Shown: positions 18,484-18,518 of the stretch, one piece after another
Numbering within the stretch: position 1 is the first letter of the stretch
Layout: every line of letters starts with the position of its first letter
Origin: Nitrospirota bacterium
GTDB taxonomy: Bacteria > Nitrospirota > CAKKRA01 > 9FT-COMBO-42-15
Reading direction: 5' to 3'
Assembly (NCBI GenBank): GCA_016214425.1
Contig: JACRON010000146.1
Span: 1-29,675 of the forward strand
DNA: 29,675 nt
Position numbers and translations under genes: made by a program
Notes under the pieces: model-generated
What the model was told of the DNA's origin: nothing
The model's database searches: none
The model's input: only the letters and a program-made list of their open reading frames with translations

Positions 18484-18518
18484 CCTACAAAAATGTATGA
18501 ATCCAGCAAAAATGTAGG
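18484..18518. promoter_or_regulatory. Tandem palindromic candidate activator sites (UAS) of the urt-ure promoter
   Basis: CCTACA-AAAA-TGTATG (18484-18499) and CCAGCA-AAAA-TGTAGG (18503-18518). Confidence 0.7.

Follow-up and report, generated by a model that had tools for sequence, protein, structure and literature searches.

The stretch of DNA analysed here, referred to as the window, is a 29,675-nucleotide contig (C1) of a Nitrospirota MAG that comprises 1.82 Mb in 273 contigs, is 71% complete and has a GC content of 41%. The sequencing runs that contain the window are groundwater DNA metagenomes only, with no RNA run among those listed. Its genes follow the order aroC-aroK-aroB, a 519-aa activator, urtABCDE, a PII-like gene, ureABC, ureEFGD and the start of nrfH, with urtA beginning at the ATG at 18740 behind a GGAGGAG ribosome-binding site. 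The 3' end of the window overlaps a second contig, C232 (window 29085-29675; 7400-8002 of the corresponding locus, L001), and as the overlap differs by a few SNPs, C232 represents a strain variant and thus strain heterogeneity within the assembly. The features of interest are as follows.

16874 to 18433, + strand: GAF - sigma-54 AAA+ - HTH_8 activator of the NifA family, 519 aa (Pfam), the presumed binder
18484 to 18499, no strand assigned: candidate urt enhancer unit 1, CCTACA-AAAA-TGTATG, the top unit of the genome (18.8 bits, out-of-family matrix)
18503 to 18518, no strand assigned: candidate urt enhancer unit 2, CCAGCA-AAAA-TGTAGG, 19 bp after unit 1
18573 to 18588, + strand: urt sigma-54 promoter TGGCATGGTTTTAGCA (-24 GG, -12 GC)
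18740 to 29126, + strand: urtABCDE, PII-like gene, ureABC and ureEFGD, the operon or operons 3' of the first promoter (Pfam)
29153 to 29168, no strand assigned: candidate nrfH enhancer unit 1, CCTACT-TTTT-TGTAGA (tandem-pair scan)
29173 to 29188, no strand assigned: candidate nrfH enhancer unit 2, TATACG-AAAA-TGTAGC, 20 bp after nrfH unit 1
29295 to 29310, + strand: nrfH sigma-54 promoter TGGCACGGATATTGCT (consensus)
29324 to 29675, + strand: 5' part of nrfH (Pfam Cytochrom_NNT), continuing on C232 as nrfH-nrfA-amtB

The gap between aroB and the activator gene additionally holds an inverted repeat, TTGTAGGG-N15-CCCTACAA (16826-16858), in which the unit hexamers stand in opposite order. The sequence of this repeat is not conserved in the relatives G003, G001 or G004, and it may be a hairpin or a product of chance.

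Two units precede each of the two promoters, in one register and with spacers composed of A and T only, as an earlier note on this DNA had described them, and the distances from unit centre to the -24 GG, which we recomputed, agree with those given there (83 and 64 bp at urt, 136 and 116 bp at nrfH). The same note had proposed CCTACA-N4-TGTAGG as a shared motif. What the four sites have in common is the palindrome type, each being a degenerate copy of the 16-bp palindrome nnTAC(A/C)-W4-TGTAnn; the exact string, however, is only a consensus, from which the sites differ at 1, 2, 2 and 4 positions, respectively. An exact ACA-N4-TGT is present in one of the four; the other three depart from it in the ACA triplet. 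Within the window the bare 10-mer occurs 7 times versus 5.2 expected, which is no enrichment. Given this degeneracy and the lack of enrichment, support for the units must come from their context and conservation.

To place the units in their genomic context, the genome was scanned with a 16-bp scoring matrix whose training units came exclusively from genomes of other families. The information content of this matrix peaks at positions 4-6 and 11-13. Across the whole 1.82-Mb genome it ranks the unit at 18484 first, and the urt units form the genome's best tandem pair (29.7 bits); the nrfH units score 8.6-10.5 bits only. A genome-wide tandem scan for two units 17-25 bp apart returned nine pairs, eight of which lie no more than 300 bp upstream of a sigma-54-like promoter, namely those of urt, nrfH (on both contigs), HTH8-amtB and nifH. 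Counted as independent loci, four of five lie in the 300-bp stretches upstream of the 156 promoter candidates, which together make up approximately 2.6% of the genome (rough binomial p ~2e-6). The rank of 18484 and the position of these pairs are the evidence that the units exceed chance. The ninth pair, on contig C268 upstream of a POTRA-domain gene, is accompanied by no sigma-54 promoter and is probably a chance match. A strict tandem AC-N5-TGT pattern was also tried and was discarded because it misses the urt pair.

A third pair on C232 (CCTACC-TTTT-TGTAAA and ACGACA-AAAA-TGTAGC) is followed by a third sigma-54 promoter, behind which lie a 92-aa HTH_8 ORF, amtB, two glnK genes and nadE. The expectation that amtB and glnK would carry the motif is borne out by the units found there, both in this genome and in its relatives. 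The glnA gene follows the amtB-glnK-nadE cluster on contig C112, and no strong unit or sigma-54 promoter is present upstream of it in the window's genome. Contig C184 (8493-8741; L158:1994-2242) carries three further units and a sigma-54 promoter (TGGCACAGTTATTGCT), behind which nifH is cut off by the contig end after 24 codons. No nifD/K-type gene is present in the window's assembly, nifH was not found in five same-family genomes (65-96% complete), and the MAG probably has a nif cluster that is unassembled. Upstream of the four promoters the units lie at distances of 64/83, 116/136, 144/164 and 75/95/113 bp, consistent with the layout of sigma-54 upstream activating sequences (UAS) in which at least two dyads are positioned approximately 50-200 bp upstream of the -24 GG/-12 GC.

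The C232 locus has additional features of its own. SNPs fall inside its nrfH units (ACG to ACA, TGT to AGT), by which the junction between the units becomes a perfect TGT-N10-ACA. The second amtB (L001:2162-3465, - strand) is split into overlapping ORFs of 151 and 301 aa, which is a frameshift or an assembly error. Behind the enhancer in the region that corresponds to L001 ~3600-3900, relatives G001-G004 carry a gene for a nirB-like NAD(P)H nitrite reductase of 816-828 aa (comparison with L160 and L162), and in these genomes two isolated units stand before the next promoter (TGGCACAGTTATAGCA, amtB-glnK). The window's genome is without nirB at this locus and also without the ~190-bp stretch that carries the isolated units.

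The earlier note had further placed the urt and nrfH units in helical phase with one another. The offset of 52-53 bp is arithmetically correct for both window promoters; however, the units of the third promoter in the same genome (164 and 144 bp) are about 3-4 bp out of phase, and a Rayleigh test over 10-15 promoters found no significant phase preference (p = 0.06-0.15). A helical-phase preference over the promoters of the regulon is at most suggestive.

Full-length orthologues of the activator are distributed across the same phylum with identities of 50-94%. In G031, G039 and G006 the orthologue lies directly upstream of nifH, the sigma-54 promoter of which has tandem units, and an nrfH promoter with units comes after the orthologue in G003 and G001, where the orthologous nrfH pair is conserved. 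The orthologue in G004 is followed by units and a sigma-54 promoter in front of a nirB-like gene. A sequence-only covariance model was built from 11 pairs (alignment A1, R1) and used to search 41 relatives, yielding new sites with E = 1e-7 to 6e-4 that precede nirB (G001-G004), amtB-glnK and GATase-glnB-glnA (G016), and glnK-amtB (G032). In G002 and G003, near-perfect units such as GCTACA-ATTT-TGTAGG stand singly ahead of amtB. The genus of G006 also includes G015, which lacks a full-length orthologue as well as nifH and any site. Sequence comparison thus reveals candidate enhancer units that are conserved in orthologous promoters and that co-occur with the cognate activator gene. One or two units additionally lie upstream of the activator's own start codon at several loci (L006, L007 and L008 at ~1410-1470, L012 at 3043 and L020 at 1429), in more distant relatives either at the 3' end of aroB or in intergenic DNA, and may indicate autoregulation.

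The pattern extends to other phyla. The best homologues there, among the matches listed, are 45-51% identical and derive from Spirochaetaceae, Spirochaetales, Treponema, Blastocatellia and Syntrophus MAGs. At most of these other-phylum loci, again among the matches listed, units are situated beside the activator gene, usually as a pair 29-31 bp apart, and are followed by a sigma-54 promoter. At four Spirochaetota loci glnA or amtB lies 3' of the sigma-54 promoter, and in a Treponema MAG the activator gene is succeeded by a single strong unit and then by a sigma-54 promoter and amtB. The Blastocatellia contig ends before the downstream gene, and the Syntrophus downstream ORF has no Pfam hit. 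No strong unit was detected at the loci of proteobacterial NifA homologues in the listed set.

That the resemblance between the sites arose by chance from A/T-rich intergenic DNA, with no function attached, is difficult to reconcile with their conservation in orthologous as well as non-orthologous nitrogen promoters of many genomes, with the top rank assigned to them by an independent matrix, and with their concentration upstream of sigma-54 promoters. A chance origin would fit the unenriched bare ACA-N4-TGT in the window and the many matches that a Desulfovibrio-derived matrix gives in this A/T-rich genome, yet on sequence grounds it is already contradicted by the covariance search, the independent matrix and the tandem-pair scan, and we regard it as extremely improbable.

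The spacing of the units indicates which part of a tandem pair is the conserved item. The unit-unit junction reads TGT-N9-GCA at urt and TGT-N10-ACG in the window copy of nrfH, just as the earlier note had it, and its statement that no TGT-N10-ACA exists at the urt promoter applies equally to nrfH, since an exact search found none in either upstream region of the window; a match at 28102 lies inside the ureG coding sequence and is due to chance. In alignment A1 the four half-sites (AC, TGT, AC, TGT) are invariant or nearly so, and the DNA between the units is not conserved. The N4 within a unit never varies, whereas neighbouring units are separated by 13, 17, 18, 19, 20 (the commonest distance), 24 or 25 bp in relatives and by 29-31 bp in other phyla. 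With a fixed internal N4 and an inter-unit spacing that ranges from 13 to 31 bp, the conserved item is therefore the unit and not TGT-N10-ACA, which bears out the earlier proposal of an ACA-N4-TGT-type palindrome as the functional unit. This palindrome is of the TAC-N6-GTA site type, its AC-N6-GT core being invariant and its centre rich in A/T.

The alternative arrangement would be a single canonical NifA UAS (TGT-N10-ACA) at the unit junction, with the outer half-sites incidental. Units spaced 20 bp apart, the commonest case, give a junction TGT-N10-AC(A/G/C), and a 20-bp pitch makes TGT-N10-ACA (and an NtcA-like GTA-N8-TAC) automatically, so that this reading fits some promoters only. Perfect copies at HTH8-amtB, in the C232 copy of nrfH, in G003, G001 and G004 and at G016 nifH are in its favour, as are a recognition helix near that of rhizobial NifA and a protein that passes the NifA equivalog model. 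The junction reading nevertheless fails at urt, at G006 nifH, at G016 amtB and glnB and at all other-phylum loci, where the junctions are, respectively, TGT-N9-GCA, N9, N8 and N7, and about N19-21; in G004 a junction of N14 also occurs. Moreover, conservation of the outer AC and TGT matches that of the inner half-sites, and isolated single units stand before amtB in G002 and G003. Taken together, we consider a junction UAS very unlikely. It is conceivable, if unlikely, that the same TGT-reading NifA helix is used in two layouts, ACA-N4-TGT and TGT-N10-ACA, related by a shift of 20 bp (approximately two helical turns). If so, tandem units with a 20-bp pitch (nifH and amtB here) would be readable both ways, such pairs could mark the evolutionary link between the TAC-N6-GTA sites that are widespread in anaerobes and the canonical proteobacterial NifA UAS, and the DNA-binding domains would act as loosely tethered monomers, not as a rigid dimer.

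The preferred reading, in which the 16-bp unit is the binding site, raises the question of which protein occupies it. The activator encoded beside the urt units scores 585.8 bits against the NCBIfam model TIGR01817 (nifA), above the equivalog cut-off of 528.85, and its translation contains a GAFTGA loop within the GAF/AAA+/HTH_8 architecture of NifA. The NifA-like TPRQLGY helix noted earlier was confirmed and is the only HTH of this type among the bEBPs of the assembly, the other bEBP recognition helices being different. It is nearly the same as that of Bradyrhizobium NifA, which binds TGT-N10-ACA; on sequence, that trait of NifA is lacking here, with junctions ranging from N7 to about N21 across the family. 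The earlier view that the units mark the enhancer of the adjacent activator gains from the adjacency of gene and sites and from their co-occurrence across genomes, from which we infer that the activator binds the units. Very probably, the neighbouring NifA-like sigma-54 activator docks at the urt and nrfH palindromes.

The stand-alone 92-aa HTH_8 protein of C232 (L001:3519-3797, - strand) has its gene in first place behind the third enhancer and promoter. It shares 52% identity with the DNA-binding domain of the activator (ITERMLAYKMKKY in the HTH_8 protein) and provides the next-best helix match, and G002 and G003 retain its ORF between nirB and amtB. Consisting of a DNA-binding domain only, this protein could compete with the activator for its sites. 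A broader possibility is that the units are bound by a protein other than the activator, be it the 92-aa HTH_8 protein, another bEBP or a CRP/NtcA-like factor. The sites, however, travel with the full-length activator gene in at least four phyla where no copy of the small ORF was observed, and this distribution weighs against the small protein despite its similarity, its retention in G002 and G003 and its position inside the regulon. The genome being 71% complete, another regulator may be unassembled; the HTH domains of the other bEBPs in the assembly have different recognition helices. A GTA-N8-TAC sequence of the NtcA type fits the centre of 20-bp pairs but fails at every other spacing, and the location of the sites 50-165 bp upstream of sigma-54 promoters is not the class II CRP position. 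We therefore judge a different binder to be quite unlikely.

The best explanation as a whole, and one that we consider likely to be correct, is that the units are activator dimer sites forming the sigma-54 enhancers of a general nitrogen regulon. Each 16-bp unit nnTAC(A/C)-W4-TGTAnn (core AC-N6-GT) would be the site for one activator dimer, a presumed stoichiometry, and two or three such units upstream of each sigma-54 promoter would constitute an enhancer. The bound dimers would assemble into an active AAA+ ring that loops to the -24/-12 promoter and brings about the open complex, presumably when nitrogen is scarce, with the nitrogen signal probably entering via the GAF domain and PII proteins. 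The predicted regulon of this genome would comprise urtABCDE-PII-ure, nrfHA-amtB, HTH8-amtB-glnK-glnK-nadE and nifH. As it would span urt-ure, nrfHA-amtB, amtB-glnK and nifH, the activator would be a general nitrogen regulator and not a nif-only one.

In this groundwater bacterium, one activator would probably co-ordinate urea uptake and urease, NrfHA, ammonium transporters, PII proteins and nitrogenase. For uncultured anaerobes of several phyla, the units would offer a usable sequence rule for the nitrogen regulons of NifA-like activators. They also carry two warnings for annotation, namely that an equivalog-named "nif-specific NifA" may be a general nitrogen regulator, and that searches for TGT-N10-ACA will miss the sites of such activators.

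Relative to the canonical NifA UAS, the present system shares the protein family (NCBIfam equivalog), the TGT and ACA triplets and the position upstream of -24/-12 promoters, including that of nifH, but the half-sites are reversed in order, with a centre-to-centre distance of 7 bp instead of 13. At urt the canonical TGT-N10-ACA is absent, and the family of this activator shows no conservation of it. A functional analogue is NtrC (NR-I), which acts from tandem dyads upstream of sigma-54 nitrogen-assimilation promoters, those of enteric glnAp2 and glnK-amtB. NtrC is a response regulator that binds TGCACC-N5-GGTGCA, whereas the protein here is a GAF-type activator with another predicted site.

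The literature searched contains no mention of ACA-N4-TGT as a bEBP site, and the earlier note had regarded the unit as non-canonical and possibly a new specificity. This suggestion has to be abandoned, since the unit equals the TAC-N6-GTA site of AnfA (PMC7294313) and the palindrome predicted for DVU1949 (PMC4641369); the specificity is therefore not new. For Rhodobacter capsulatus AnfA, the dyad TAC-N6-GTA was shown by promoter mutagenesis and EMSA, and two dyad sites located directly after anfA and upstream of a sigma-54 promoter are both needed for full activity (2020, PMC7294313). AnfA is likewise a GAF-AAA+-HTH protein and a NifA paralogue, and its core TAC-N6-GTA corresponds to the TAC(A)-W4-(T)GTA of the window. 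It differs in that the anfH promoter is its only strictly dependent target and in the Cys motif of its GAF domain; the regulon predicted here extends to general nitrogen scavenging as well as nifH, the activator scores as NifA, and its binding is predicted.

DVU1949 is a single-component EBP of the nitrogen regulon of Desulfovibrionales with a predicted 16-bp palindrome TTTACA-N4-TGTAAA, and its computationally predicted sites occur in one to several copies in a regulon classed as nitrogen metabolism and transport (Kazakov et al. 2015, PMC4641369, Additional file 4). The two systems share the palindrome nnTACA-W4-TGTAnn and a single-component regulator, with a TPRQMGY helix in DVU1949, but the flanks are TTT/AAA there and CCT/AGG in the window. 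Comparison of the two proteins, which covered only the 42-aa DNA-binding domain, gave 38% identity and 76% positives, with the same TPRQxGY helix. The predicted DVU1949 sites lie upstream of DVU1231-1233 (amtB-glnK) and of other nitrogen-metabolism operons. A matrix derived from 16 published D. vulgaris DVU1949 sites did not single out the window units, the core being shared and the flanks not. To these systems the present analysis adds a further lineage, together with a predicted regulon in which urt-ure and nrfHA are combined with amtB, glnK and nifH. The units are real and conserved, form the predicted enhancers of a NifA-family general nitrogen activator, and represent a solid new example and not a new mechanism.
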